Source of the DNA: an uncultured Candidatus Saccharibacteria bacterium
GTDB lineage: Bacteria; Patescibacteriota; Minisyncoccia; Phycocordibacterales; WO2-35-19
Direction: 5' to 3'
Length of the DNA: 41,298 bases
Assembly: GCA_964455485.1 (NCBI GenBank)
Contig: CAYVXT010000003.1
Span: forward strand, 1-41,298
This document shows positions 1,000-32,364 of the stretch, in pieces. A model generated the notes under the pieces. The model ran no database searches. It saw only the letters and a list, made by a program, of their open reading frames with translations, and was not told where the DNA came from. Every line of letters begins with the position of its first letter. Within the stretch, counting starts at the first letter, position 1. The translations under genes and the position numbers were made by a program.

Positions 1000-1140
1000 T
1001 GCCTGGGGTGGGACTCGGTCACAACTCTTTTGTTTTCCAAAAGGTTTCGACCCCGCCTCGCCTGTTTCGTTTTGCTCAACATCGCTCCGGCTTTCTCGTC
1101 CCACTCGCAAAGCAGAGCAGTCTGCTTTGCTCACAGACAT
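1000..1140 (-). ncRNA. TEC-B: short tRNA-end-capped structured element downstream of tRNA-Leu(TAA)
   Basis: On the minus strand it runs ATGTCTGTGA, hairpin GCAAAGCAG-ACTGCT-CTGCTTTGC, GAGTGGGACGAGAA ... GGCGAGGCGGGGTCG, a hairpin, then GTGACCGAGTCCCACCCCAGGCA. A 21-nt exact repeat of the tRNA 3' end and flank is present (997-1017 = 1160-1180). Confidence 0.6.
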
Positions 1141-1161
1141 AAAATTCGCATTGCGAATTTT
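1141..1161 (-). terminator. Hairpin after tRNA-Leu(TAA)
   Basis: AAAATTCGCA-TT-GCGAATTTT palindrome immediately 3' of the tRNA. Confidence 0.55.
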
Positions 1162-1365: not shown

Positions 1366-1734
1366 TTAATTTTCAATCTGATTCTGATTTAGGAGCTCAT
1401 CGATTCGTTGACGATTGTGTTCGCCCATATCGATTTGAAAATCTATCCTTGGAGCGTATCCAAATGACTTTTTACTTATGACAAATTGCCTAAATTCGCT
1501 TCTGTGTCTTCGCATAAAATCAAGCGCCGCTTCTTCTTTATGTTGAGGTAAAGCAGTAAAATAAATCATGGCTCTTTTGCCCCGATCTAATATTTGTGAA
1601 TTTGTAATAGTGATCAAAGAATCGTGGTTTGATTCTCTTTCAAAATACTCAGCAGCAAATTCTTTTAGAAGGGAAGCCGCCCTTTCGTCTTTGTGATGTT
1701 TTGGTTGGTGACCCATAAAATTACTTTTTATCAA
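1366..1734 (-). CDS. rbfA: Ribosome-binding factor A
   Basis: The ORF lies immediately downstream of infB, the conserved infB-rbfA order. Size and C-terminal region fit RbfA. The start could instead be the internal Met at 1716. Confidence 0.75.
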   Translation of the reverse strand: MIKSNFMGHQPKHHKDERAASLLKEFAAEYFERESNHDSLITITNSQILDRGKRAMIYFTALPQHKEEAALDFMRRHRSEFRQFVISKKSFGYAPRIDFQIDMGEHNRQRIDELLNQNQIEN

Positions 1735-3214
1735 CCATTATTGTTGCTTGTAGCACATCAATTGGGGCAATTTCAATTTTAGATTCTACCATCAGTCCAA
1801 ACTCGTCTCCTTCCTTGGCATGATCAGCTTTTATTTTTTGAACCTGAAGCTCTTTTATCTTACCTTCACCTATAATTGCGTCTCTTCTAATTATTTTTAC
1901 CGTTGAACCGGTTTTAATTTCACCTTCTTGGACTTTACCACCGATTACTTGTTTGTCTTTATTTTTACTAAATATTCTAAGTACTTTGGCTGAGCCAGTG
2001 ATGACTTCTACTTTTGATATTGGGGTAGCTTCGTCCAACCTTTCTCTTAGAAAGTCCATAAGCTCATAAATTATTCTGAAAGATTTGACTTGTATGTTTT
2101 CTCGCAGTGCAAATGCTTCAGCATTTTTTTCTGTGCTTACATTGAAACCAATAACCAGACTATGCTTTATCTCTGCAGTTTTTATATCATTTTCAGAAAC
2201 TGCACCTATGCCTTTTAAAACTATTTGCGGCCTGATTTTTTCATTACCAATTTTCTTGATTTCATGCTCTACAGCTTCGAGTGATCCGTAAGTATCGGTT
2301 TTTATAATTAGAGGCAGAGTGATCCTTGTATCTGTGTGATCTACATCGGTCTCAGTTTTAGTTGTTTGGGTATTTGCAAATTTAATTGCTTCTTCCTTAT
2401 CAGCAAATGCTCTAAACTCTTGACCCACTCCTGGCATTTTGTCCCATCCTACTATTTCAACTGGGCTTGAGAAGGTTGCGCTATCAATTTGTTTACCTTG
2501 GAAATTATGTATGGAACGTACTTTTGCATATGCACCACTTGCGGCTACAAACATTCCAATTTTTAATAAACCATCTTTTATAATTAGAGTTGCAGATATT
2601 CCTTGTTTAGGATTTAGCTCACTTTCAATAATAAATCCCTCTGCATTTTTAGACGGATCTCCTTTTAAGTCTTCCATGTCAGATTGGAGAATAATAAGTT
2701 CTAACAAATCAGTTATATTGTCACCGGTTTTTGCAGAAACTGCGACGGCTGGTACTGACCCGCCCCAACCTTCAATAAAAACTTCGTTTTCAGCAAGACT
2801 TTGTTTTGTCTTATCTATGTTTGCGCCTGGTTTGTCGATTTTGTTTAGAGCCACAATGAATGGAATGCCATCATTTCTAATGCATGAGAGTGCTTCTATG
2901 GTTTGAGGTTTTACTCCATCATCTGCTGCTACTACAAGTATCGCAATATCTGCAACACTGGCTCCGCGCTCTCGAATCGAACAAAAAGCTTCATGACCAG
3001 GGGTATCCAAAAATGTTATAGTGCGAACATCGTCACCAACTTTGCATTCAGCTTCGTATGCGGAAATATGCTGGGTTATTCCCCCAGCTTCTGAACCTGC
3101 CGTGTTTGACTTTCGGATATAGTCGAGCAAAGTCGACTTGCCGTGGTCAATATGCCCCATTACTACTACCACAGGAGGCCTTTTTATTTGTTTTTCTCCG
3201 TTAGTTATAGCCAT
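1721..3214 (-). CDS. infB: Translation initiation factor IF-2 (short form)
   Basis: GTPase motifs GHIDHGKST and DTPGHEAF, followed by the IF-2 C-terminal domains. Start set at MAITNGEK (3214); the ORF track extends to 3250. Confidence 0.92.
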   Translation of the reverse strand: MAITNGEKQIKRPPVVVVMGHIDHGKSTLLDYIRKSNTAGSEAGGITQHISAYEAECKVGDDVRTITFLDTPGHEAFCSIRERGASVADIAILVVAADDGVKPQTIEALSCIRNDGIPFIVALNKIDKPGANIDKTKQSLAENEVFIEGWGGSVPAVAVSAKTGDNITDLLELIILQSDMEDLKGDPSKNAEGFIIESELNPKQGISATLIIKDGLLKIGMFVAASGAYAKVRSIHNFQGKQIDSATFSSPVEIVGWDKMPGVGQEFRAFADKEEAIKFANTQTTKTETDVDHTDTRITLPLIIKTDTYGSLEAVEHEIKKIGNEKIRPQIVLKGIGAVSENDIKTAEIKHSLVIGFNVSTEKNAEAFALRENIQVKSFRIIYELMDFLRERLDEATPISKVEVITGSAKVLRIFSKNKDKQVIGGKVQEGEIKTGSTVKIIRRDAIIGEGKIKELQVQKIKADHAKEGDEFGLMVESKIEIAPIDVLQATIMVDKK

Positions 3215-8397: not shown

Positions 8398-8452
8398 ATA
8401 AAATTTTAAGTTGATTGAATCGAAAAATATGTTAGATTTGTATATGCATATT

Positions 8453-8536
8453 GCGTCGGTGGTAGAGTGGTCAATTACAACAGACTGTAAATCTGTCGCC
8501 CATCGGGCTACGCAGGTTCGAATCCTGCCCGGCGCA
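8453..8536 (+). tRNA. tRNA-Tyr (anticodon GTA)
   Basis: Acceptor GCGTCGG/CCGGCGC plus A, anticodon loop CTGTAAA, class II variable arm, T-arm GCAGG-TTCGAAT-CCTGC. Confidence 0.9.
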
Positions 8537-8542
8537 CCCAGG

Positions 8543-8566
8543 AAAAACTGCTGCAAAGCAGTTTTT
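8543..8566 (+). terminator. Hairpin plus T-run after tRNA-Tyr
   Basis: AAAAACTGC-TGCAAA-GCAGTTTTTT. Confidence 0.6.
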
Positions 8567-8575
8567 TCTTACCTT

Positions 8576-8811
8576 TGCTCCGGGAGGAAAAGCGTGGGAC
8601 GCTTTTCCGTCAGGATTCGAACGACGGAGAGGGACCCGCTTTAGCAAAAGCGGGAGCGAGTCGGTGCCCAGACCAAAAAAGTTTTGACGAAAACTTTTTG
8701 AGTCGAGGGTGAGCTTGGGGTGGGACCCAAGCGCAAGACTTATTGAGACTGAACAAAGTGAGGTCCAATAAGTAGACAGCTTCTGTAAGAAGAAATTCCT
8801 GCCCGGCGCAC
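8576..8811 (+). ncRNA. TEC-Tyr-L: long tRNA-end-capped structured RNA (group-I-intron-like core?)
   Basis: 5' TGCTCCGGG pairs with 3' CCCGGCGCA. CAGGATTCGAAC (8611-8622) is the reverse complement of GTTCGAATCCTG in tRNA-Tyr. Three hairpins have compensated stems relative to the 39.1-kb copy. The last 15 nt (8797-8811) are identical to tRNA-Tyr 8523-8537. Confidence 0.65.
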
Positions 8812-8850
8812 AGGAAAAAATCGCATTGGCGGTTTTTCTTGTGCGCCGGG
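8802..8850 (+). repeat. Long inverted repeat using the duplicated tRNA-Tyr acceptor strand
   Basis: CCCGGCGCACAGGAAAAAATCGC-ATTG-GCGGTTTTTCTTGTGCGCCGGG. Confidence 0.6.
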
Positions 8851-8927
8851 CGAGTAGCTTCGATGATCAAATCGAAGCGTTACATAGGATTCGAAAGGTG
8901 GAAGAAATTTTTCAGCAGAAAAATTTC
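8848..8927 (+). ncRNA. TEC-2: 3'-truncated short element
   Basis: Hairpin GCTTCGAT-GATCAA-ATCGAAGC, then ATAGGATTCGAAAGGTGG, then hairpin AAATTTTTC-AGCA-GAAAAATTT. This matches the layout of TEC-Asn-S (38160-38291) but lacks the 3' tRNA-like end. Confidence 0.45.
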
Positions 8928-8951
8928 CTAAAAAATTGCTATAATAATAAA

Positions 8952-9620
8952 ATGGAGGAACTACCAAGCAATAATCAAGATAATTTGCCCGTGTCTGAAG
9001 AATGGGAAGGTAATGACACCTTTAATAATTCTGAAAATAATAACGACAACTACGCTGAGAGTTATAATACTGCAGATTATGCCAATAAACTTTCAGAACA
9101 TCTTCTTGGTCTAAAAACCAATGACCCTAAAATAGTAGAGAGGCTTATAGAGGACCAAAATATAATAAGAGCTAAATATAATCTGCCTCCACGCAAAGCT
9201 ATTTCAAATTTACCAGAATATGAACGCTTATTGAGAAATATTGCCCAATCTATTGGTGTCTCGATAAAAGAAAAATCAGAGTGTGGAAAATTTTTTGAAG
9301 AAAACTCAGTAGGAGGAGTTCATTTCGAAAATGACAATAAAATAGGAGTTAACATAAACAAGAATACAAAACAAAGTTATACCAATAGTTTAAACTCTCT
9401 TGAACATGAACTAATCCATGCTTTACAACATCACTTTTCCCCCAGAATGCCAATTGAACTTATGGAATACGAGGCATATATTGCCGGTGGTAATAATGAA
9501 TTCTTAAGAGAAAGTCCAGAAGGAGTTGAAGTGGTTTTTAGTGATCTAATCGGTGCCTCCATAAGATGGTGGTATTCACAAGAGAGCAAAAATAAAGGCG
9601 AAACAAATTCACCTGACTGA
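8952..9620 (+). CDS. Hypothetical protein with an HExxH zinc-metallopeptidase-like motif
   Basis: Start moved to MEELPSNN, because the upstream part of the tracked ORF covers TEC RNA. The motif LEHELIHALQH is present. The N-terminus is low-complexity and rich in N/D/E. Confidence 0.6.
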   Translation: MEELPSNNQDNLPVSEEWEGNDTFNNSENNNDNYAESYNTADYANKLSEHLLGLKTNDPKIVERLIEDQNIIRAKYNLPPRKAISNLPEYERLLRNIAQSIGVSIKEKSECGKFFEENSVGGVHFENDNKIGVNINKNTKQSYTNSLNSLEHELIHALQHHFSPRMPIELMEYEAYIAGGNNEFLRESPEGVEVVFSDLIGASIRWWYSQESKNKGETNSPD

Positions 9621-9682
9621 CTATCACCACCTGAACACTGATATATTCGGTAAATGTAGATTGACCCAACTTTTCATCAACT

Positions 9683-9748
9683 CAGTTCTAACGTGATCCA
9701 GTGCCCCACACCAAAATAAAAAACATGTTTTGGAATAAATTCCTGCCC
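9683..9748 (+). repeat. Degenerate or deleted TEC copy at the left edge of the GC-rich island
   Basis: CAGTTCTAAC (9683-9692) resembles the AAGTTCTAAC junction motif. AAATTCCTGCCC (9737-9748) is identical to the last core nucleotides plus the start of the tRNA-Tyr copy in TEC-Tyr-L (8793-8804). Confidence 0.5.
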
Positions 9749-9808
9749 TCTAAAATCTTGTTTTAATTGAAGTTCAGAATAGCTAAACACCCTTATTTTT
9801 AGGTCCCC

Positions 9809-9837
9809 TTTACACCCATTGACTTTTAGTGTATAAT
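9809..9837 (+). promoter_or_regulatory. Promoter TTTACA-N17-TATAAT for the 9871 cassette
   Basis: TTTACA at 9809-9814 and TATAAT at 9832-9837. AAGGAG lies 7 nt before the ATG. Confidence 0.6.
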
Positions 9838-9870
9838 TTGCTATTCTTATCTTAGAAAAGGAGCATACAC

Positions 9871-10371
9871 ATGACGACACTTCAGGTGTGGAAGAAGGTC
9901 CCGACGATCAAAGGTGCCTCCAGAATGAAAGAGTTGATTGCGATTGTAGGAAAAAGCTGTGTCATCAGACCGGCAGCACGAGAGTTGTGCGAGCGAGTAG
10001 AGGAAAAATTCTCGCTTCCAGCCGGCGACACCAGCGTAGCTCTTCTCTCGATGGCGGATCTTGGCTTCAGCCAGGGTGTGCCATTCTACGAGTTCTACGA
10101 TCGCGCTGCGGAACAGGGCTACCAACTCTGCACTCCCGAAGTGGGATTGCTGATCAGGAAAGCCTTCAGTAAAGGAGAGCAGCACTCCCGTCCCGACCGC
10201 AGTTTCCGTTGCATTTATGTGGCAATGGAACCTGTCGAAATCGGTATCGGCGAAACCGCTGTCCTTTCGTTGGAAGTCACCGACACCGAAGCTGAATTAC
10301 GTGCGGCACGATGTATGCCGCAGACAGCTTTCGGACCGTCGGAGAAGTGGGCTTTCAAGGTTCCTGCTTAA
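9871..10371 (+). CDS. Hypothetical protein (GC-rich cassette)
   Basis: 166-aa ORF with a strong SD. No recognisable motif. Confidence 0.6.
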   Translation: MTTLQVWKKVPTIKGASRMKELIAIVGKSCVIRPAARELCERVEEKFSLPAGDTSVALLSMADLGFSQGVPFYEFYDRAAEQGYQLCTPEVGLLIRKAFSKGEQHSRPDRSFRCIYVAMEPVEIGIGETAVLSLEVTDTEAELRAARCMPQTAFGPSEKWAFKVPA

Positions 10372-10492
10372 GATCCTTAAACTGGGGCCAGTTTCGGCTG
10401 GCCCTCCTACCAGAGTTTTTCAGAAATGGAGAATTGCGGTGGGAGACTGCAAATCCCTAAATCTCAGATCTGTACTTTCAAAGGAGAAAGTC

Positions 10493-10840
10493 GTGAGCTT
10501 ACTTAGTCGATTGATCTACATGTATTTCCGCATCGCACTCTTCTTCGGAAGAGAGATGCACGTCTACAACGTGAGCAGCCGCTGGGGCTCGAGGACTGAC
10601 AGGATTCCGCATCGCTACAACGCGGCGTGGGAAATCCAGAAGGTTCTGGAGAAGAAGGGTTGGCCCCGCTGTGCGTTCTGTGGCTGGGTAACCAAGGAGT
10701 TCGACGAGCACCTCAAAACGGGCGAAGGATACTGCTACCAGCAGTCCATCGGCAACCCCGGAGTGCCGTGGGATCAGGAACCTGACCCACAGCTCTCCTA
10801 CGACAAGATGCCTGATCGGCTCCGTCACTGGCCGGCGTAG
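10493..10840 (+). CDS. Hypothetical Cys-containing protein (GC-rich cassette)
   Basis: The GTG start follows AAAGGAGAAAGTC. The in-frame upstream part of the tracked ORF lacks an SD. A CAFCGW motif is present. Confidence 0.5.
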   Translation: MSLLSRLIYMYFRIALFFGREMHVYNVSSRWGSRTDRIPHRYNAAWEIQKVLEKKGWPRCAFCGWVTKEFDEHLKTGEGYCYQQSIGNPGVPWDQEPDPQLSYDKMPDRLRHWPA

Positions 10841-10945
10841 AAGTTCTTTCTTGGGCGAGTCAGAAATGATTCGCCCTTCCATCAAAGTATTTTTCTTTAA
10901 GAATATTTTGATGGGAGTAAAATCCGAGTTCTTTAGGAGATGAAT

Positions 10946-11161
10946 ATGGCAAATTACGAAGTTTGGTATACGGAAATTCGATACCGTGACCAAACACGCA
11001 CCTGGATGACTTCTTCTGATCGAAAGTCGACTCCTTTCGAGGAGTCGAGCGATGAGAAAGCGAGAGAGATCGCAAAAGCGCTCATGAACGCGCCGAGCGA
11101 TGATCCTCTTGTAGACAGGAGAATTCCTATTAAGCTCGTGAAAGTCATTGAGATCATGTAA
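10946..11161 (+). CDS. Hypothetical small protein (GC-rich cassette)
   Basis: AGGAG lies 6 nt upstream of the second ATG. The ORF is about 71 aa. Confidence 0.5.
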   Translation: MANYEVWYTEIRYRDQTRTWMTSSDRKSTPFEESSDEKAREIAKALMNAPSDDPLVDRRIPIKLVKVIEIM

Positions 11162-11175
11162 AAAGGAGCAGGACA

Positions 11176-11616
11176 ATGAAGCAAACTCTTATTCTGACTT
11201 ACAATCGGGTTCAGGGGTTCGCTCCTGGCTCGCACGGCAATGATCGCGTTGTGATCCACAAGATCGACAAAGACGCTTTCACCGAAGAAAACTACGAGAA
11301 GGCGACAGCGGCACTCCGAGCTCAGGTTTCCGTGAGTAATCCACTCGAAACTGAAGCCTACGTGTATCTGGGTTATTCGGGAGGAGAAGAGCAATACTCC
11401 CACTTGCAACGCAGGGTATTCAGAGCAGCGACAGAAACCGTCCTGGCCTTGATAAAGGAAAGGGCCCGTATTCATATTGTTGGCTGCACCTGCTTCAGCA
11501 CCAGCAAGCGGGAGTTCACTGAAGCTAGTGGCTTTGACTACATTGAAAGCAAAGAGTGTGGTGGCCATCTGAAGCTCGGCAAAATTGTCAGTGAGATTCT
11601 CAAGACTACTGCTTAG
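11176..11616 (+). CDS. Hypothetical protein (GC-rich cassette)
   Basis: AAAGGAG SD, 146-aa ORF, followed by a terminator. Confidence 0.6.
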   Translation: MKQTLILTYNRVQGFAPGSHGNDRVVIHKIDKDAFTEENYEKATAALRAQVSVSNPLETEAYVYLGYSGGEEQYSHLQRRVFRAATETVLALIKERARIHIVGCTCFSTSKREFTEASGFDYIESKECGGHLKLGKIVSEILKTTA

Positions 11617-11624
11617 ATTTACAA

Positions 11625-11668
11625 CCGCCCACACCGGGACAAAATCCGGTGGAGGGCGGATTTTGTTT
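11625..11668 (+). terminator. Terminator of the 9871-11616 cassette operon
   Basis: CCGCCCACACCGG...CCGGTGGAGGGCGG followed by ATTTTGTTT. Confidence 0.7.
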
Positions 11669-11890
11669 ATTATACTGGCCGGTCACCGGCAAGTACGGGT
11701 TGTACATCGGACTCTCTGTCTGGACTGCGGGGTTATTCACCTGGTTCTGGGCAGTGCATCGGTCGTTTTGCATCACGAGAACAGCATAATGTTTTCGAAA
11801 CCGCTTTGGGAGTCGCTCGACCCTCGGGCGGCTTTCTTCATATCTGAATTATTATCAAACTAGTTCCAACGCTACACCGGACAATACACC

Positions 11891-12240
11891 AAAAAATAAA
11901 CCGCCATGTTGATGGCGGTTGCGAAAGGCGAGCGAGATGAAGTTCTTTGTCGGCCAACTACAATAAAAAGTTATAAAAATTTATATTTTAACTTTTCATT
12001 TTCATTAACCTGGTGTGGGTCTGCGCCCCTGCTATGTATGCTTACATAGTTTCGTTCAGCTTCGGCGCATTTGGGGTCTTAACCTTGTGTGCTGTTGGTA
12101 CGTCCATCGAACTAAGCTTTGCGATTAGGAAGGTCAATCCCAACCATACGTTCCTATTTCAAATCGGTCCTCACACACCACACTCGAGAGTTCTTTTCCT
12201 CTTTTCGTTCTTCTCTCGCCTTGACTCGTAAGAAGTCATT
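11891..12240 (-). ncRNA. Candidate non-coding transcript of about 350 nt, unassigned
   Basis: Minus-strand promoter TTGACT (12275-12270), N17, TATAAG (12252-12247). Minus-strand terminator AACCGCCATCAACATGGCGGTT plus TTATTTTTT near 11891-11920. No ORF above about 25 codons has an SD. Confidence 0.35.
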
Positions 12241-12336
12241 AATTTACTTATAACTTATTTTATATATAAAGTCAATCTAGTAAAGTAGTTTATACTTTTA
12301 AATATAATAAACTGAATAACTTTCGAACTGTTTTAT

Positions 12337-13995
12337 TTATTGCTGTTCGTCAGCACCTATGTCCCATGAGCCGCTTCGTGTTTGACCATCAATGTCGGTT
12401 GTAAATAGTCCTCCAACGCTATTGGTACCAAAATCTTTAGCACCAGCATCGCCTGCTTGGAGGTGATAGTCTTTTGCGCCCGCGTTAACAAATGTAAATG
12501 TTGTAGCACTTCTTGAGTTTGCACCTGGTGCGCCATTACCATCATCTTCTGCATTGTAGTTTGATGTGCCAGCAAATGTTCCTACAAAGCCTATGGTTGC
12601 TCCAGTCACTAAATGATTAACAACTTTGGTGCTTGTTACATCAGTCACAAAACCATAAGTACAGCCGGCAGAAGTATTATTATAATATTCGTCGGTGTCG
12701 GCAAGGTCAGTCGCAAAACATTGTCCAAAGTCATAAACCAAATTATTCCAAACTTTAACAGTCGCTCCAGCTAGTCCTGCTGGTCTATTATTTATTCCAA
12801 TTGTATTACCTTTTGTTCCAGTTAAAGTTACAATATTATTTGATATTCTACAGTCGACGTCGGCATAGTTTTGGTTTGCGTTTGAACATTTAATTCCAAT
12901 ATAACTATCTCCAGCGCTTCTGGTAATTTTAATTTGTATCCCTTCAATACGAAGATGTCCTGGTGTATTGTTATACAATGCATTTGTATTTGTAACTTCC
13001 AAGCGATATTTGTTTGTATCGTACTTACCAGTGGGGGAGTTAGAAAAGTGATTTGGGCTTTGTTCTCCAATTATCCAGAGGTAATTTGCAGCTGATGTGG
13101 TTTGATCAAATGGTGTTTGGTTTATAGCTGAAGTATCAGCGACTGATCCTGAGGCATATATACGATAAGGGGTAGTTAGAGTAGCTGGTAGCAGGTTGAT
13201 TGCTTCGAGTAAGGTTGCGCATGCGCGAGTAGCTCCTGCTGTGTTGTTTGTAGTGCAATCTCCGCCCGCTGATGAGCTTGTATTTACGTATAATGTTGTG
13301 CCGGTAAAGGAGTCACCACCTGAGCTACCGCCCCCTCTAAAGGAAACTCTGCCACCGCTACTCGAGCCTCCTCTCACCGAAACTCTTCCTCCTCCAGCTC
13401 CTCCACCACGGATGCTTACTGATGAAAATAGTGGATCAAGGAGCCCATAACCATTTTTATTACCTATTGCTTCAATCCAAAACTCTCCTGATGAACTCTC
13501 AGGAAAGTATATTATTGCACGAAAATGCACAATATCATTTGGTTTGAGTTCAGTATTAAAATTATTTTTTGATTCAAATTCCTGAGGAATAGGTTTTTTA
13601 GATATTGCATGTTCGGCCTTACCTTCTTTAACTTCCAAGGCTTGCCAAGTACCGCTCACCATACGCTCTATTTTTAAAGCGCCCGATTTTAAATTTCTTG
13701 GAAAGTAAAGTTGGAAGTCAAAATTTTCAACAGTGGTACCGATATTTTGTGCTGAAAAATAAACTTCAGCATCAGAAATTCCAGAATAACTACCAGCATC
13801 TGATTTTATTATTACAGTTTCGTTTGTGTTTTCGTCTGTATTCTCAATTGTAGGAATTTCTGTCCTTTGGAATGTTAGATCTCTTTCAGTATTTTTACTA
13901 TTTTTAAAATTAAAATATAAAAAAACTAAAATTACTAAAATACCCAAACTTACCCAAACTATAAGATTTTTTTTAGAATTATTAGGACTATCCAT
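12337..13995 (-). CDS. Membrane-anchored surface protein with a Gly/Ser/Arg repeat and a beta-helix-like C-terminal half
   Basis: N-terminal TM helix. Tandem GGRVSVRGGSSSGG / RVSFRGGGSSGG. The C-terminal half is rich in N/T/G, typical of parallel beta-helix adhesin-like proteins. Confidence 0.7.
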   Translation of the reverse strand: MDSPNNSKKNLIVWVSLGILVILVFLYFNFKNSKNTERDLTFQRTEIPTIENTDENTNETVIIKSDAGSYSGISDAEVYFSAQNIGTTVENFDFQLYFPRNLKSGALKIERMVSGTWQALEVKEGKAEHAISKKPIPQEFESKNNFNTELKPNDIVHFRAIIYFPESSSGEFWIEAIGNKNGYGLLDPLFSSVSIRGGGAGGGRVSVRGGSSSGGRVSFRGGGSSGGDSFTGTTLYVNTSSSAGGDCTTNNTAGATRACATLLEAINLLPATLTTPYRIYASGSVADTSAINQTPFDQTTSAANYLWIIGEQSPNHFSNSPTGKYDTNKYRLEVTNTNALYNNTPGHLRIEGIQIKITRSAGDSYIGIKCSNANQNYADVDCRISNNIVTLTGTKGNTIGINNRPAGLAGATVKVWNNLVYDFGQCFATDLADTDEYYNNTSAGCTYGFVTDVTSTKVVNHLVTGATIGFVGTFAGTSNYNAEDDGNGAPGANSRSATTFTFVNAGAKDYHLQAGDAGAKDFGTNSVGGLFTTDIDGQTRSGSWDIGADEQQ

Positions 13996-14082
13996 AAGTT
14001 AGCTCTAATTTTACCTCATCAGTGCTACTTAGCAAATAAGGGGATGGGGCATATTTTGCGGTATATATATCCATGTACTAAA

Positions 14083-14541
14083 TCAATTTTCCAATGCTGA
14101 GTTCCAAAGAATTTTCTTGATTTTTCTAGTGCTGTCAAAAGTAAAATGATGCTCACAAATTTCTCCTGTTTTAGAATTATTGCTTATCGCTGTCTCGCCT
14201 CCTACAAAAAAACCGATGTGCTTGTGCATATGACCACCTCCAAAATCAGTTTTTTCCCAAACTAGCACACACCCTGTTTTTGGTTCATTTATTTCCACCC
14301 AGTCATTTTCAAGCATGTCGCGCACGGTTCCATCTACTGTAGCGTGCGGGCTTTTTATAAGTTTTGTTATCAAAAGTATGGAAGAAACATAAAAGGCACA
14401 TGAAAGGTTTCCATTTTCTGTAATGTCGGTTTTAACTCCGTCAACCGACATATAAAGGTTTTTAAATATTTTAGATCCAACACTGTTTTTTATAATGGAC
14501 TGATAAGTATTAAATGTTAAAATTTTATTCGTTTTTTCCAT
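14083..14541 (-). CDS. Putative papain-fold (NlpC/P60- or CHAP-like) cysteine hydrolase
   Basis: Candidate nucleophile in LSCAFYVSS and a downstream His in HKHIGFFVG. Confidence 0.45.
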   Translation of the reverse strand: MEKTNKILTFNTYQSIIKNSVGSKIFKNLYMSVDGVKTDITENGNLSCAFYVSSILLITKLIKSPHATVDGTVRDMLENDWVEINEPKTGCVLVWEKTDFGGGHMHKHIGFFVGGETAISNNSKTGEICEHHFTFDSTRKIKKILWNSALEN

Positions 14542-14609
14542 GTGGGTAGATCTATGATATATTAGTTTAATTGAATCATAATATCATAAGATACCAATCA
14601 TTTACCTAA

Positions 14610-15191
14610 ATGCCTGAATATGCTAATAATTTAAATAGGGAGGTTAAATTCGTGGACAATATTTTAGCCGTTCCGTACTCGTCGCAGTACTTGGACATAG
14701 ATGAAAAGATACATCTTCTAACAGCGTGCGGAATGACCTCGGTGTACATGGCACTGAGGTACTACGGGGTCTCGAATGGCGGCTTAGATAAGCTCGTCGA
14801 AAAGGGTGTAGGTGAGGGCGGATACAGTAAATCTGGTTGGGTCCATGACTACCTGGTTAAAGTCTTTGAGGACCATGGCGTGAGATGCACCAGAATGGAA
14901 CAGATGAGGGACCGAGACATTGAGATAATCTGGGAGTCGTTGAAGGAGAATAATCCCGTCGTGATCTCAATGCAAAGGTTTTCGTTTGATAGAAGGATTT
15001 TCCATATGGTCGTTGTAACTGGGTATAGGTGCAACGAAAGTGGAAAATTGGAAGGATTCTTTTATCATGATCCGGCCGGACTCAACCCTGACGAAGTAAC
15101 CAATTTGTTCGTTTCTATTCCTGTCTTTCTCCAGTACTGGAGGAAGATGGCTATTTTGCCAACTGGCAAAAATGCTCCGCAACCAAGCTAA
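14610..15191 (+). CDS. Peptidase C39-like domain protein
   Basis: Cys block LLTACGMTSVYMAL and His block FHMVVVTGY with C39-like spacing. Confidence 0.55.
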   Translation: MPEYANNLNREVKFVDNILAVPYSSQYLDIDEKIHLLTACGMTSVYMALRYYGVSNGGLDKLVEKGVGEGGYSKSGWVHDYLVKVFEDHGVRCTRMEQMRDRDIEIIWESLKENNPVVISMQRFSFDRRIFHMVVVTGYRCNESGKLEGFFYHDPAGLNPDEVTNLFVSIPVFLQYWRKMAILPTGKNAPQPS

Positions 15192-18097: not shown

Positions 18098-18532
18098 GTG
18101 GTGCAGTCTGATAGAGAATGGCATTTCCAGATCGTCCGTTCTAGCGGGCTATCAGCAGATTACACAAACAACATAACCTCAGCTCTTGATCCTATTCACA
18201 AAAGAGAGTCTTCGTTAAGAGAAGCTACAATGGCAATCAGCGAACGAATTCTGCAACTTCCAGATTACACTGATTATGCTCGCGCTTCAGCACAGTCTTC
18301 CGGTATTCCATCCGACTTCGACGTTTTCGTGAATGATAGTAACAAAGAAGCAGTCGCTCGTATTGACACTCTAGTCGTGGAATTGAAAGCTGAAGTGCAC
18401 AAACCGGTAGCTCAGATTGACCTTGCTTTAGTTTGCAGTAAAGCTGAAGCAATCTATTCTGCCGTGATGGGCAAAGCTGTCACTTTTGGGTTGTTTCGGC
18501 AATCCCTAAACTCGCTTGTTCAAAAGGCCTGA
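18098..18532 (+). CDS. Hypothetical protein (GC-rich two-gene insert)
   Basis: GTG start after AGGAG. The ORF is 144 aa and visibly GC-richer than miaA. Confidence 0.5.
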   Translation: MVQSDREWHFQIVRSSGLSADYTNNITSALDPIHKRESSLREATMAISERILQLPDYTDYARASAQSSGIPSDFDVFVNDSNKEAVARIDTLVVELKAEVHKPVAQIDLALVCSKAEAIYSAVMGKAVTFGLFRQSLNSLVQKA

Positions 18533-18593
18533 TCCAGCAATACCGGATCGGGCTCTTCTCCTGGTTCATCCATGAGGTGGATCGAGTGTCGGT

Positions 18594-18911
18594 ATGGGAG
18601 AAAGTCAAAAACCGACCGACGATTCCTATGTAGAATCGAACGAGAGTTCTTTCGACGATTACTTAGCAATGTGCAAGAGGGCTGCCAAGGACGTCGACTT
18701 CTACCAAAAGGCGTCAATTCAGGCTATTGTCAAAGACATGTTGCGGCGGGTCGAAGAACTGAACGTTCAAATTTTGGCTGGCGAGATCGAGCCCACTCCC
18801 TATCTCAAGCCGATCGAGAAGAGCAATTATTTAGGCAAGACTCTAATCGCCCTAGCCGAAGCCTTCGAAGTCGAATTGCCGGCGTCTACAACAACTCCGG
18901 TCTCGGTATAA
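18594..18911 (+). CDS. Hypothetical acidic protein (GC-rich two-gene insert)
   Basis: 105-aa ORF followed by a GC-rich terminator. Confidence 0.5.
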   Translation: MGESQKPTDDSYVESNESSFDDYLAMCKRAAKDVDFYQKASIQAIVKDMLRRVEELNVQILAGEIEPTPYLKPIEKSNYLGKTLIALAEAFEVELPASTTTPVSV

Positions 18912-18937
18912 ATACTGGAACACCCCGCTCACAAGAG

Positions 18938-18976
18938 CCGCCCACTTTGTGGAACTCTTGCGGGCGGTTTTCTTTT
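18938..18976 (+). terminator. Terminator of the 18.1-18.9 kb insert
   Basis: CCGCCC ... GGGCGG followed by TTTTCTTTTT. Confidence 0.6.
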
Positions 18977-18998
18977 TGTTTACATAATAACAACGATT

Positions 18999-19229
18999 TT
19001 ATTTTTCCCTTACATAAACAAATCGGGGTCCTTTGTAGGGGATTTCGGGTTTGTCTACTTCTTCTAAGAACATTGAAATAGGGCGCACCCACAATTTCCT
19101 TTCTCCGTACAGTGCGCGATAAACAACATACTCTTCTTGTGTTTCTGAATGTAAGGCAACATCTATAACTTCGTATTCATTGCCTTTAAAATGCTTATAA
19201 ATACCTTTTTTGATTTCCATATCAATCAT
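18999..19229 (-). CDS. DUF1653-family protein
   Basis: YKHFKGNEYEV...VVYRALYGERKLWVRPISMF matches the DUF1653 pattern. Confidence 0.75.
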   Translation of the reverse strand: MIDMEIKKGIYKHFKGNEYEVIDVALHSETQEEYVVYRALYGERKLWVRPISMFLEEVDKPEIPYKGPRFVYVREK

Positions 19230-31494: not shown

Positions 31495-32364
31495 TCAACA
31501 CTTCGCTACAAAAAGCGCAGCCGTGTAAGTGTGCATGTAGAACTTGATTTTGCCGAGAATCCTGAACTCGACTTTGTTTCCCAACCCCTCAGCCATGAAT
31601 TCGGCTATTAGCCCCAAACTGTCAGGGGTGGTATCTCCCCAGATTACTCCAGGGTTGTCTTCCGGTTGTGGATGGATCAGAAGCGCATCCAAAAAACTGA
31701 GCAACTTTCCAATCCTTCTTGCTGTTCTTGCCATTTTTCGCTGGTGTTTTGGCTTAAGATCGTGAGGCTCCTGTTTGTCAAGAACGCTAAGGACTCTCGA
31801 GGCTACTAACAAGCGTGCACTCTCAGAAGGAATGTACTTTTTCCGGCAGGCAAAGTTAATGTCTGCGCGGTATACATCATTCCCTAGGGCGTTGTGGGCT
31901 TGCTGATCTATGATAGATCTGCCAATATCACATCCAACCTGAGAAGCGTCATAGGCTATAACACCCATCTTCTGTTGGTTGGCAATTGGAAGGATCATTT
32001 CTAAGGCTTGGCCAGTGCCAATACCGAAATATCTTAAATCTTTAGGTAGGGCGTCGCCGTAAAATTTTCTAAAATTTAATGCTTTTTTAACGGCGTCAGC
32101 TTCACCGGTCGCAAGTCGATACATCTCGACCTGGTGGCGTGCGGAATTGAACTGGCCTTGTTGCAGTACGTGAGTTGGGATTATTCCTTTTTTGATTTTA
32201 TTGTCCCAATGGTCCTCAACTTCACGGTTGACACTGTAGGCAAGCTCTTCCCATAAGGTGAGCGTGGGCGCTATCAACATCTTTGCGCTCACGTGCGTCT
32301 CCTTTCCTGTTCGTCCTTTCGTAGAAAGAACTAAGTTTTCTAAGCCGATTATAACAGACTTCAT
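31495..32364 (-). CDS. Putative SAM-dependent methyltransferase-like protein (GC-richer gene)
   Basis: YFGIGTGQALEMI resembles motif I (GxGxG). The gene is visibly higher in GC than the adjacent kinase gene. Confidence 0.4.
   Translation of the reverse strand: MKSVIIGLENLVLSTKGRTGKETHVSAKMLIAPTLTLWEELAYSVNREVEDHWDNKIKKGIIPTHVLQQGQFNSARHQVEMYRLATGEADAVKKALNFRKFYGDALPKDLRYFGIGTGQALEMILPIANQQKMGVIAYDASQVGCDIGRSIIDQQAHNALGNDVYRADINFACRKKYIPSESARLLVASRVLSVLDKQEPHDLKPKHQRKMARTARRIGKLLSFLDALLIHPQPEDNPGVIWGDTTPDSLGLIAEFMAEGLGNKVEFRILGKIKFYMHTYTAALFVAKC

Follow-up and report, generated by a model that had tools for sequence, protein, structure and literature searches.

The 41,298-nucleotide stretch analyzed here (contig CAYVXT010000003.1, referred to as the window) belongs to a ~38% GC chromosome and encodes IF-2, a SufS-like protein, ClpB, TopA, RelA, SerRS, ParB and other housekeeping proteins, with eight tRNAs dispersed along it (ARAGORN). 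The relatives of its ClpB among species-representative genomes all belong to Patescibacteria/Parcubacteria, and the nearest, from Candidatus Zambryskibacteria, shares 87% amino acid identity. The host genome is Zambryskibacteria-like (Parcubacteria, Candidate Phyla Radiation or CPR) and tiny. Tiny genomes are the rule in CPR/Patescibacteria. Few classical mobile elements are believed to occur in them, and still many orphan genes differ from one genome to another. We focused on a GC-rich island with four small genes, isl1 to isl4, that starts at 9749, downstream of the 3' side of tRNA-Tyr and beyond a structured tRNA-trailing element of a family that we call TEC, the cassette of another gene (orf222) and the relic of a TEC. 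For comparison we used 80 related loci (L002-L081, 1.34 Mb), in which the gene order ClpB - tRNA-Tyr - variable stretch (0.4-8 kb) - tRNA-Trp - tRNA-Leu(CAA) is widely kept and the distance between tRNA-Tyr and tRNA-Trp ranges from ~0.4 to more than 7 kb (8.4 kb in the window). The features of the locus, in window coordinates, are the following:

8452-8540, plus strand: tRNA-Tyr (GTA), the anchor of the array (ARAGORN; Rfam tRNA model, 60.6 bits at 8453-8536).
8570-8815, plus strand: long-form TEC of type A, whose end (ATTCCTGCCCGGCGCA, 8795-8810) repeats the 3' end of tRNA-Tyr exactly.
8836-8930, plus strand: 5' half of a type-S TEC, cut by the orf222 promoter (41 nucleotides are 93% identical to the L007 TEC, 14641-14681).
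8952-9620, plus strand: orf222, cargo of the cassette before the island, host-like in composition (GC at third codon positions, GC3, of 0.26).
9641-9721, plus strand: Tyr-type junction motif with CAGTTCTAAC, which closes the right end of the orf222 cassette.
9719-9748, plus strand: collapsed relic of a type-A TEC, composed of the hairpin AAAACATGTTTTG, GGAAT and AAATTCCTGCCC (13-mer and TEC-A tail comparison).
9809-9837, plus strand: cassette promoter TTTACA-N17-TATAAT (11 of 12 matches; best promoter-like site in 8400-12500).
9871-10371, plus strand: isl1, 166 amino acids, a near-orphan with one homologue (53% identity) among 5.8e9 proteins.
10372-10492, plus strand: two-hairpin spacer with a GC hairpin, CTCCTACC..GGTGGGAG and AAATCCC (75% identical over 56 nucleotides to L082 and L083).
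10493-10840, plus strand: isl2, 115 amino acids, GTG start, a Cys-containing small protein that recurs in other cassettes.
10841-10945, plus strand: second two-hairpin spacer, between AGTTCTTT direct repeats (read from the sequence; like arrangement in L082 and L084).
10946-11161, plus strand: isl3, 71 amino acids, with no homologue found in the related loci, Pfam or PHROG.
11176-11616, plus strand: isl4, 146 amino acids, with 22 representatives among 1.8e9 proteins.
About 11622-11668, plus strand: operon terminator hairpin followed by ATTTTGTTT (read from the sequence; arm detected by repeat comparison).
11854-11885, plus strand: weak junction-like site ATCAAACTAGTTCCAACG..CTACACCGGACAAT (nhmmer E = 0.039 in a search of the 741-nucleotide tail only).
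11886-12336, no strand assigned: non-coding remainder, which contains a hairpin (11899-11920) and, on the minus strand, a weak promoter-like site (12284-12257).
1000-1161 (minus strand), 8570-8815, 38150-38292 and 39090-39322: TEC sites in the window (covariance-model and copy scans).

The island differs from its host in composition. Its GC content is ~50% at 9750-11950 compared to the ~38% background, and in windows of 500 nucleotides it reaches 0.50-0.53 at 10001-11500 and 0.46 at 11501-12000 (median of the whole window, ~0.38). GC3 is 0.58, 0.75, 0.51 and 0.55 for isl1 to isl4, respectively, compared to 0.312 +/- 0.064 for 19 host genes (P = 2e-4, Mann-Whitney test). The synonymous codons of the four open reading frames (ORFs) depart from the host table with a chi-squared per degree of freedom of 8.7, while single host genes range from 0.7 to 3.1. 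Each of the four ORFs is preceded by an AGGAG-type Shine-Dalgarno sequence. An earlier reading of the DNA, made from its letters only (hereafter the sequence-only reading), had described a GC-rich island with this very promoter and four tightly packed ORFs with strong Shine-Dalgarno sequences at 9871-11616. All of these features were found, and the island still stands out once GC and codon usage are computed.

None of the 80 syntenic loci contains the island; the one trace of it there is an isl2 homologue that sits in another cassette. One of these loci, L011, shows the empty state, with a homologue of the window's orf152 lying 48 nucleotides after tRNA-Tyr. Due to this absence and to the atypical composition, the four-gene segment at ~9749-11885 is best read as a horizontally acquired, compositionally foreign operon cassette with its own sigma-70 promoter, Shine-Dalgarno sequences and terminator. 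Its host-type promoter and ribosome-binding signals would also be expected of a native operon, inherited vertically and GC-rich owing to its function. However, a GC3 nearly twice that of the host, a codon usage beyond that of any host gene compared, the lack of the operon in the syntenic loci and the extreme rarity of its homologues make such an origin barely credible.

The right side of the island is less sharply defined. A single unit of 2.6 kb had been proposed; the foreign GC-rich segment stands, but the single unit does not, as the four-gene cassette probably ends near 11885, where the site at 11854-11885 is a weak candidate for its right end, and 11886-12336 is separate. No ORF longer than 92 amino acids occurs at 11617-12336, none has a Shine-Dalgarno sequence, and the comparison of this tail with six serine recombinases (blastx) returned no recombinase pseudogene. 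The ORF-free tail that the sequence-only reading described, with convergent terminators and a minus-strand promoter, is indeed present: the hairpin at 11899-11920 is terminator-like on the minus strand, and the promoter-like site at 12284-12257 is weak (9 of 12 matches). The 371-nucleotide ORF-free stretch between the two (11885-12255, minus strand) folds with a z-score of -4.55 and has neither a homologue in the related loci nor a match in Rfam.

The left edge is composed of two distinct elements, a junction motif and a TEC relic. The sequence-only reading had merged them into one degenerate TEC; the relic at 9719-9748 is real, while CAGTTCTAAC, at 9683-9692, belongs to the separate junction motif of ~70 nucleotides. 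The evidence for the relic is twofold. First, the 13-mer AAAACATGTTTTG has just one other occurrence in the 1.34 Mb, which lies in a TEC hairpin (L038). Second, AAATTCCTGCCC at 9737-9748 is identical to 8793-8804, which is the 3' tail of the type-A TEC plus the first seven nucleotides of the tRNA-Tyr 3' copy. With at most one mismatch, AAATTCCTGCCC is found three times in the window, where 0.29 occurrences would be expected; all three lie at TEC 3' ends, and its 35 flanking nucleotides are 71% identical to the TEC end, so that the 12-nucleotide match noticed earlier exceeds chance and extends into its surroundings. By this comparison, 9719-9748 is a type-A TEC with its middle deleted. The partial tRNA copy on the left of the island amounts to the seven tRNA-derived nucleotides of AAATTCCTGCCC; on the right, a weak CCGGACA lies beside the weak junction-like site.

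The junction motif at 9641-9721 scores 69.8 bits (nhmmer, E = 1e-19) against its own hidden Markov model, a value that expresses family fit only since this sequence is one of the five used to build the model; independent matches were obtained in L027 and L069. The motif is found at the tRNA-distal ends of cassettes behind tRNA-Tyr in L037, L038, L048 and L069, with two copies in each of the last two, and L027 has it downstream of ClpB; in the related loci the model has matches only downstream of tRNA-Tyr or ClpB. Of the five occurrences of its part AGTTCTAAC in the window (chance expectation, 0.35), four lie at cassette boundaries. When translated from the minus strand, 9641-9721 reads ..LDHVRTELMKS..PNI, which resembles the tail at the C-terminus of large serine recombinases, and the corresponding junction of a second array in the window, behind tRNA-Asn, reads IEDVRT.

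We then used the 20-mer AGTTCTAACATYCTCYANTA of the motif to scan metagenomes, which returned 113 contigs, 80 of which were examined. In 21 of these 80, a same-strand tRNA lies upstream, and nine species are represented (His, Gly, Asp, Trp, Tyr, Ala, Glu, Val and Ile); the tRNA-Asn of the window array is the tenth. The 20-mer is followed by an acceptor-like end that is typical of the upstream tRNA, such as CGGCACCC in the His type and GCGGAGCC in the Asn type, and in the 21 contigs this segment is more similar to the end of its cognate tRNA than to those of non-cognate tRNAs (P = 2.5e-5). As the match is imperfect and yet conserved within each class, the pseudo-acceptor would be mostly borne by the element, with a common core close to the very last nucleotides of the tRNA.

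Clustering of the ORFs in the motif-containing contigs revealed large serine recombinases with Resolvase, Recombinase and Zn_ribbon_recom domains. The gene for such an enzyme is absent from the window, and present beside the motif in L155 and L162 and over tRNA ends in L056 and L129. In L155, the 20-mer falls within the last 25 codons of the recombinase gene, whose product ends in ..YTVVEDVRTFYEMNREAMIPNLKR; the VVEDVRT of this tail is the antisense reading of the 20-mer. In L162, the recombinase stop codon is 110 nucleotides from a palindromic site resembling the attachment site attP, GTTCTAAC-N20-GTTAGAAC, seen in this contig only. The 3' end of one recombinase ORF of L056 (11915-13747, minus strand) overlaps the convergent tRNA-Trp at 11976-12047 (plus strand), another (1366-2907, plus strand) runs into the convergent tRNA-Leu(TAA) at 2821-2908 (minus strand), and the ORF of L129 (1550-3259, minus strand) overlaps two tRNA-Met. 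The last 20-60 residues of the L056 and L129 enzymes are thus encoded by tRNA antisense, so that the recombinase would have one C-terminus when its element is integrated and another when it is excised. The junctions of the window resemble the left half of such an attP followed by a pseudo-acceptor.

Cassette stacks are common behind the tRNAs of this clade, and in the 80 related loci GC-rich segments often adjoin a tRNA gene. L038 is composed of tRNA-Tyr, a type-A TEC with an exact 3' copy, a TTGACA/TATAAT promoter, the isl2 homologue, the junction motif and an AT-rich host gene. In L048, tRNA-Tyr and a terminator are followed by a GC-rich cassette with a 640-amino-acid helicase, a junction, a second GC-rich cassette (326 amino acids), a junction, a TEC and host genes; L069 carries three cassettes with junctions between them. 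The L048 helicase (12947-14869), with ResIII/Helicase_C domains and four C-terminal INT_rpt repeats, resembles type IV restriction and PbeA helicases, which suggests that some cassettes may carry defence genes. In the window itself, the tRNA-Asn array (38113-41298) comprises at least five small cassettes (141, 63, 65, 164 and 117 amino acids; GC3 0.39-0.66), each with a TTGACA-type promoter directly after a GGAGC(C) copy of the tRNA-Asn end. One of its boundary motifs (40955-41025) has AACATCCTC..CAAACGGAGC interrupted by a GC hairpin. The similarity between the two arrays had been noticed from the letters and taken as a sign of one insertion process; they do share the same boundary elements, and the process now has a candidate enzyme, a large serine recombinase, which the window does not encode.

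The sister arrays, which come from independent assemblies, also bear on whether the island could be an artefact of assembly or binning, with a GC-rich foreign fragment joined into the contig. The sharp GC step would fit an artefact, as would near-orphan proteins with their nearest relatives on contigs that are short and in some cases GC-rich (L085). However, the layout of tRNA-Tyr, TEC, GC-rich cassette and junction recurs in L038, L048 and L069, the left edge of the island holds a locus-specific TEC tail of the tRNA-Tyr type, and several such cassettes are found at two tRNAs in the window. We consider an artefact very unlikely.

The reading that we favor, with a probability of about 0.55, is that the island is a four-gene operon cassette in an accretion stack behind tRNA-Tyr, built by a family of large serine recombinases that target tRNA ends. 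These enzymes would have an attP that overlaps the 3' end of their own gene and would integrate at tRNA 3' ends. An integrated unit would retain the left attP half, which is the conserved AGTTCTAACATYCTC junction motif, at its tRNA-distal end, joined to an acceptor-like sequence that is particular to the type of tRNA, and later arrivals would push earlier units outward. The island lies just distal to the junction at 9641-9721 and to the deleted TEC at 9719-9748, and is probably one recombinase-less, decayed cargo cassette of a serial-integration array. Given the lack of a recombinase and the decayed right junction, it would most likely be the remnant of a cargo that can no longer move and is expressed from a promoter of its own. 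Since the window has no recombinase, it is from the sister contigs that we infer the insertion of this cassette by this enzyme family; the exact crossover point and the direction of array growth are putative as well.

Several observations speak against this proposal. Neither a recombinase gene nor a pseudogene was detected in the window by Pfam-type domain searches or by blastx, which, with the whole window against six serine recombinases, returned only trivial matches where recombinase tails overlap tRNA sequence. A Pfam search of 47 ORFs, taken in the related loci from GC-rich stretches beside tRNAs, returned no integrase or recombinase, and just two of the 80 examined contigs have a recombinase beside the motif. 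Recombinase-less cassettes open directly with a promoter and have no recognisable right attP half, which leaves their autonomous movement unexplained. At the island, the right junction is weak and has no clean tRNA-end copy, and the left breakpoint falls after CCTGCCC, off the crossover expected from the junction motifs near the extreme tRNA 3' end; CCTGCC|C had been considered as the recombinase crossover and was dropped on these grounds. Finally, the cassette with isl2 on L082 has no tRNA on its 4-kb contig.

The position of the island behind a tRNA and the partial tRNA 3' copies at 8795-8810 and 9741-9748 are also what would be left by an ordinary tRNA-targeting island that was inserted by a tyrosine integrase, since lost, of a phage, an integrative and conjugative element or a tycheposon-like element, with the tRNA-end copies as attR scars. 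The 3' junctions of TECs fall inside the T-loop, which is a classical sublocation used by tyrosine integrases, and serial integration of tycheposons at the tRNAs of Prochlorococcus leaves dispersed partial tRNAs (10.1101/2020.12.28.424599). This origin is nevertheless unlikely, as the window and the 47 cassette ORFs have no Phage_integrase match, the recombinases found beside the motif or over tRNA ends are of the serine type only, and neither phage-type proteins (PHROG) nor a replication module are present.

TECs are found behind many other tRNAs. The two in the window behind tRNA-Tyr (8570-8815) and in the tRNA-Asn array (39090-39322) have in common a core of 149 nucleotides that is 90% identical (39174-39322 in the latter), each ends in an exact 3' copy of its own tRNA, and their folds give z-scores of -9.6 and -8.3, respectively, against shuffled sequences. 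By scanning the window and the 80 loci for same-strand copies of the last ~14 nucleotides of each tRNA, with one mismatch allowed, we identified 50 units behind tRNA-Tyr, three species of tRNA-Leu, and tRNAs for Lys, Trp, Glu and Cys, with the copy mostly 116-290 nucleotides downstream. Their layout consists of an often present hairpin, a complement of the acceptor 3' strand that reaches into the discriminator, another hairpin, the complement of the T stem with (A)TTCGAA, a structured core and the tRNA 3' copy; the cores are of at least four types (A, S, B and C). The upstream complement is tRNA-specific (cognate versus non-cognate, P = 3e-10). Its alternative reading as a sense copy of the tRNA 5' end was rejected, because the complement passes into the discriminator and the next base, which are absent from tRNA leaders. 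Behind tRNA-Tyr of the window (around 8816-8935), the 3' copy also pairs with a downstream complement to form a hairpin with 19-nucleotide arms (8801-8851), followed by the type-S 5' half.

An alignment of 18 type-S TECs supports 22 base pairs, in which 96% of the cells are paired, compared to 72.5% in shuffled alignments and 36-50% in slid controls; cells with double changes number 86, compared to 20.6 in shuffles. G.U pairs outnumber A.C pairs by 14:3, which favours the tRNA-sense strand. A covariance model of type S has 67 matches with E < 0.01 in the window and the related loci, 61 of which lie at most 600 nucleotides downstream of a same-strand tRNA, mostly 11-87 nucleotides away. Rfam recognises only tRNAs at gathering score, and at 8400-12400 it has nothing for TEC, junction or tail up to E = 5. 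We therefore regard the TEC as a structured element with covariation that follows many tRNAs and is absent from Rfam. Both the covariation and the position of 61 of the 67 matches argue that it is not primarily an insertion scar. Readings as a miniature inverted-repeat transposable element, IS200/605 omega RNA, IS110 bridge RNA, retron or group I/II intron were considered and set aside, as no signature of a transposase, a reverse transcriptase or a ribozyme was seen.

Some type-S-like cores occur in tandem, with two to three units behind one tRNA (L067 13690-14090; L024 3080-3460; L017 2377-2762 and 3368-3670; L029 4554-5124), and some of these units are devoid of the tRNA-like closing helix. 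Behind tRNA-Leu(TAG) of L051 (3971-4446, minus strand), a promoter, a small ORF and a terminator lie between two type-S TEC tails; the copies correspond to the last ~27 nucleotides of the TEC, ATTTATGCGTGACCAAGTCCC.CCTCG, and the boundary here is not the AGTTCTAAC motif. Among viral sequences, the IMG/VR contig L095 (34.7 kb) has a strong type-S match at 2833-3186 (68 bits) and a weaker second one; the expected upstream tRNA would be at or beyond the edge of the stretch examined. Viral contig L103 has one weak match (E = 0.002), and the other contigs scored nothing in scans with the junction and type-S patterns, where five loci with the junction pattern were not shown to be related. A scan of viral contigs with a TEC-A 21-mer had a single match in a high-GC contig, which was discarded as chance.

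The TEC data are relevant to two further accounts of the array. One invokes natural transformation and homologous recombination, with tRNA, TEC and junction sequences as anchors and no dedicated recombinase. Most cassettes do lack a recombinase and a right attP half, TEC cores are mosaic between loci, with the tRNA-specific ends of the Tyr and Asn elements differing around their nearly identical cores, and isl2 is paired with different partner genes. This account leaves unexplained why a 20-mer from a recombinase tail lies at cassette ends behind at least ten tRNA species and why a class-specific pseudo-acceptor follows it, and we deem it improbable. In the other account, which we offer as a speculation with a small chance of being right, the TEC would be a mimic of the top half of the tRNA and act as a decoy landing pad (a secondary attB) for elements whose large serine recombinases target tRNA ends. 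The CPR genome would in this way capture promoter-bearing orphan cassettes in integron-like arrays while single-copy tRNA genes are spared, and the island, which starts inside the TEC 3' copy, would be one capture. The closing helix of the TEC would then reproduce the acceptor and T stems of its own tRNA, as structured RNA or DNA; we hold this part to be equally speculative.

The four island proteins are near-orphans, as database searches showed. None of them has a match in Pfam, in PHROG, which was used to assess a prophage or phage satellite, or in PADLOC, which was used to assess a defence island; orf222 has no match in Pfam or PHROG either. The homologue of isl2 in L038 (9068-9406, 112 amino acids, 39% identity) lies directly behind tRNA-Tyr and its TEC. 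Three closer homologues (P0026-P0028, 67-73% identity) are on short contigs, and in L082 isl2 and another partner gene form a GC-rich cassette between host genes. Some of the isl4 representatives are the N-terminal domain of proteins of 450-500 amino acids, and the alignment shows invariant residues G18, Y64, C104, C106, C128 and G130 (GCxC..ECGG). The AlphaFold (AF2) model of isl4 has a mean confidence (pLDDT) of 91.6 and a three-layer alpha/beta fold, for which a search of the PDB returned only generic three-layer alpha/beta folds (TM-score at most 0.46). The protein is confidently predicted to be an alpha/beta domain, and the alignment gives it an invariant Cys triad.

The spacers between these genes are conserved as well. 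Their elements (GC hairpin, TCC..GGGAG hairpin and AAATCCC) are found in L082 (3274-3383 and 3600-3680), L083 and L085 (820-880), and in L085 the similarity to 10372-10492 runs on upstream of the isl2 start. In three cases, with L084 among the relatives that have spacers, AGTTCTTT direct repeats flank the spacer, one copy just past the stop codon and the other in the next ribosome-binding region.

Other parts of the window have genes with high GC3: a C39-like peptidase (0.53; 14610-15191, plus strand), two orphan ORFs upstream of tRNA-Leu(CAA) (0.38-0.39, with total GC of 0.45-0.47; 18098-19081, plus strand) and a 289-amino-acid orphan (0.48; 31495-32364, minus strand). These may be further acquired genes. 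In several relatives tRNA-Tyr, with its TEC where present, is inverted relative to ClpB (L005 13519-13788; L010, L015, L017, L021, L030, L054, L070, L073 and L078), which suggests inversions at the hotspot.

Several known systems share features with this locus. Like tycheposons, it is a variable tRNA-side island in a streamlined genome, with stacked units among which newer ones are thought to push older ones outward, partial tRNA copies between units, and cargo whose function is not known or adaptive. Unlike tycheposons, the array of the window has no tyrosine recombinase and no primase/helicase module, it is built of very small units (0.7-2.2 kb) that each have a promoter and a terminator, and the boundary is a 20-mer (coding for a recombinase tail in one contig) with an imperfect pseudo-acceptor instead of an exact ~40-nucleotide repeat. 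With phiC31, Bxb1 and the Ccr-type recombinases of SCCmec, the motif-adjacent recombinases have in common the Resolvase, Recombinase and Zn-ribbon set, and with serine integrase elements the imperfect inverted-repeat attP-like site of L162 and a short apparent attP/attB-like common core. They differ from these in that the proposed attP overlaps the recombinase 3' end, most array units have no enzyme, with none in the window, and the putative targets are tRNA 3' ends: in mycobacteriophages, it is the phages with tyrosine integrases that use tRNA attB sites, while those with serine integrases do not (PMC9262239).

Integrons are similar in their arrays of small, mostly recombinase-less orphan-gene cassettes with a recurring recombination-type motif and a fixed chromosomal anchor. 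The window, in contrast, has no IntI and no attC hairpin geometry (R''/R', RYYYAAC/GTTRRRY), its anchor is a tRNA gene, and its cassettes bear their own promoters and terminators. As for the TEC, though not the island, the distal repeats of Escherichia coli tyrT with the rtT RNA (Rfam RF00391) are units downstream of a tRNA-Tyr gene that each end in a tRNA 3' copy. The TEC is likewise a unit downstream of a tRNA that ends in such a copy; it differs from rtT by its lack of an Rfam match, its presence behind many tRNA species, its several core types, its strong covariation and its upstream complement of the tRNA end.

The island itself is of an ordinary kind, a foreign cassette at a tRNA hotspot, and it is the setting that is unusual: integron-like stacks of promoter-bearing mini-cassettes in CPR, whose boundary motif follows ten or more species of tRNA and, in two contigs, is connected with the 3' terminus of a gene for a serine recombinase. 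The locus offers one concrete route for the variation of orphan genes in CPR, through promoter-bearing mini-cassettes stacked behind tRNAs. The TEC represents a defined and testable object for RNA biology, as a tRNA-trailing family that matches its own tRNA end and has no Rfam entry. Should the enzyme prove to be the right one, serine integrases would target tRNA 3' ends and would have been retargeted to at least ten tRNA species, which would be of interest for the biology of mobile elements and for the search for programmable integrases.

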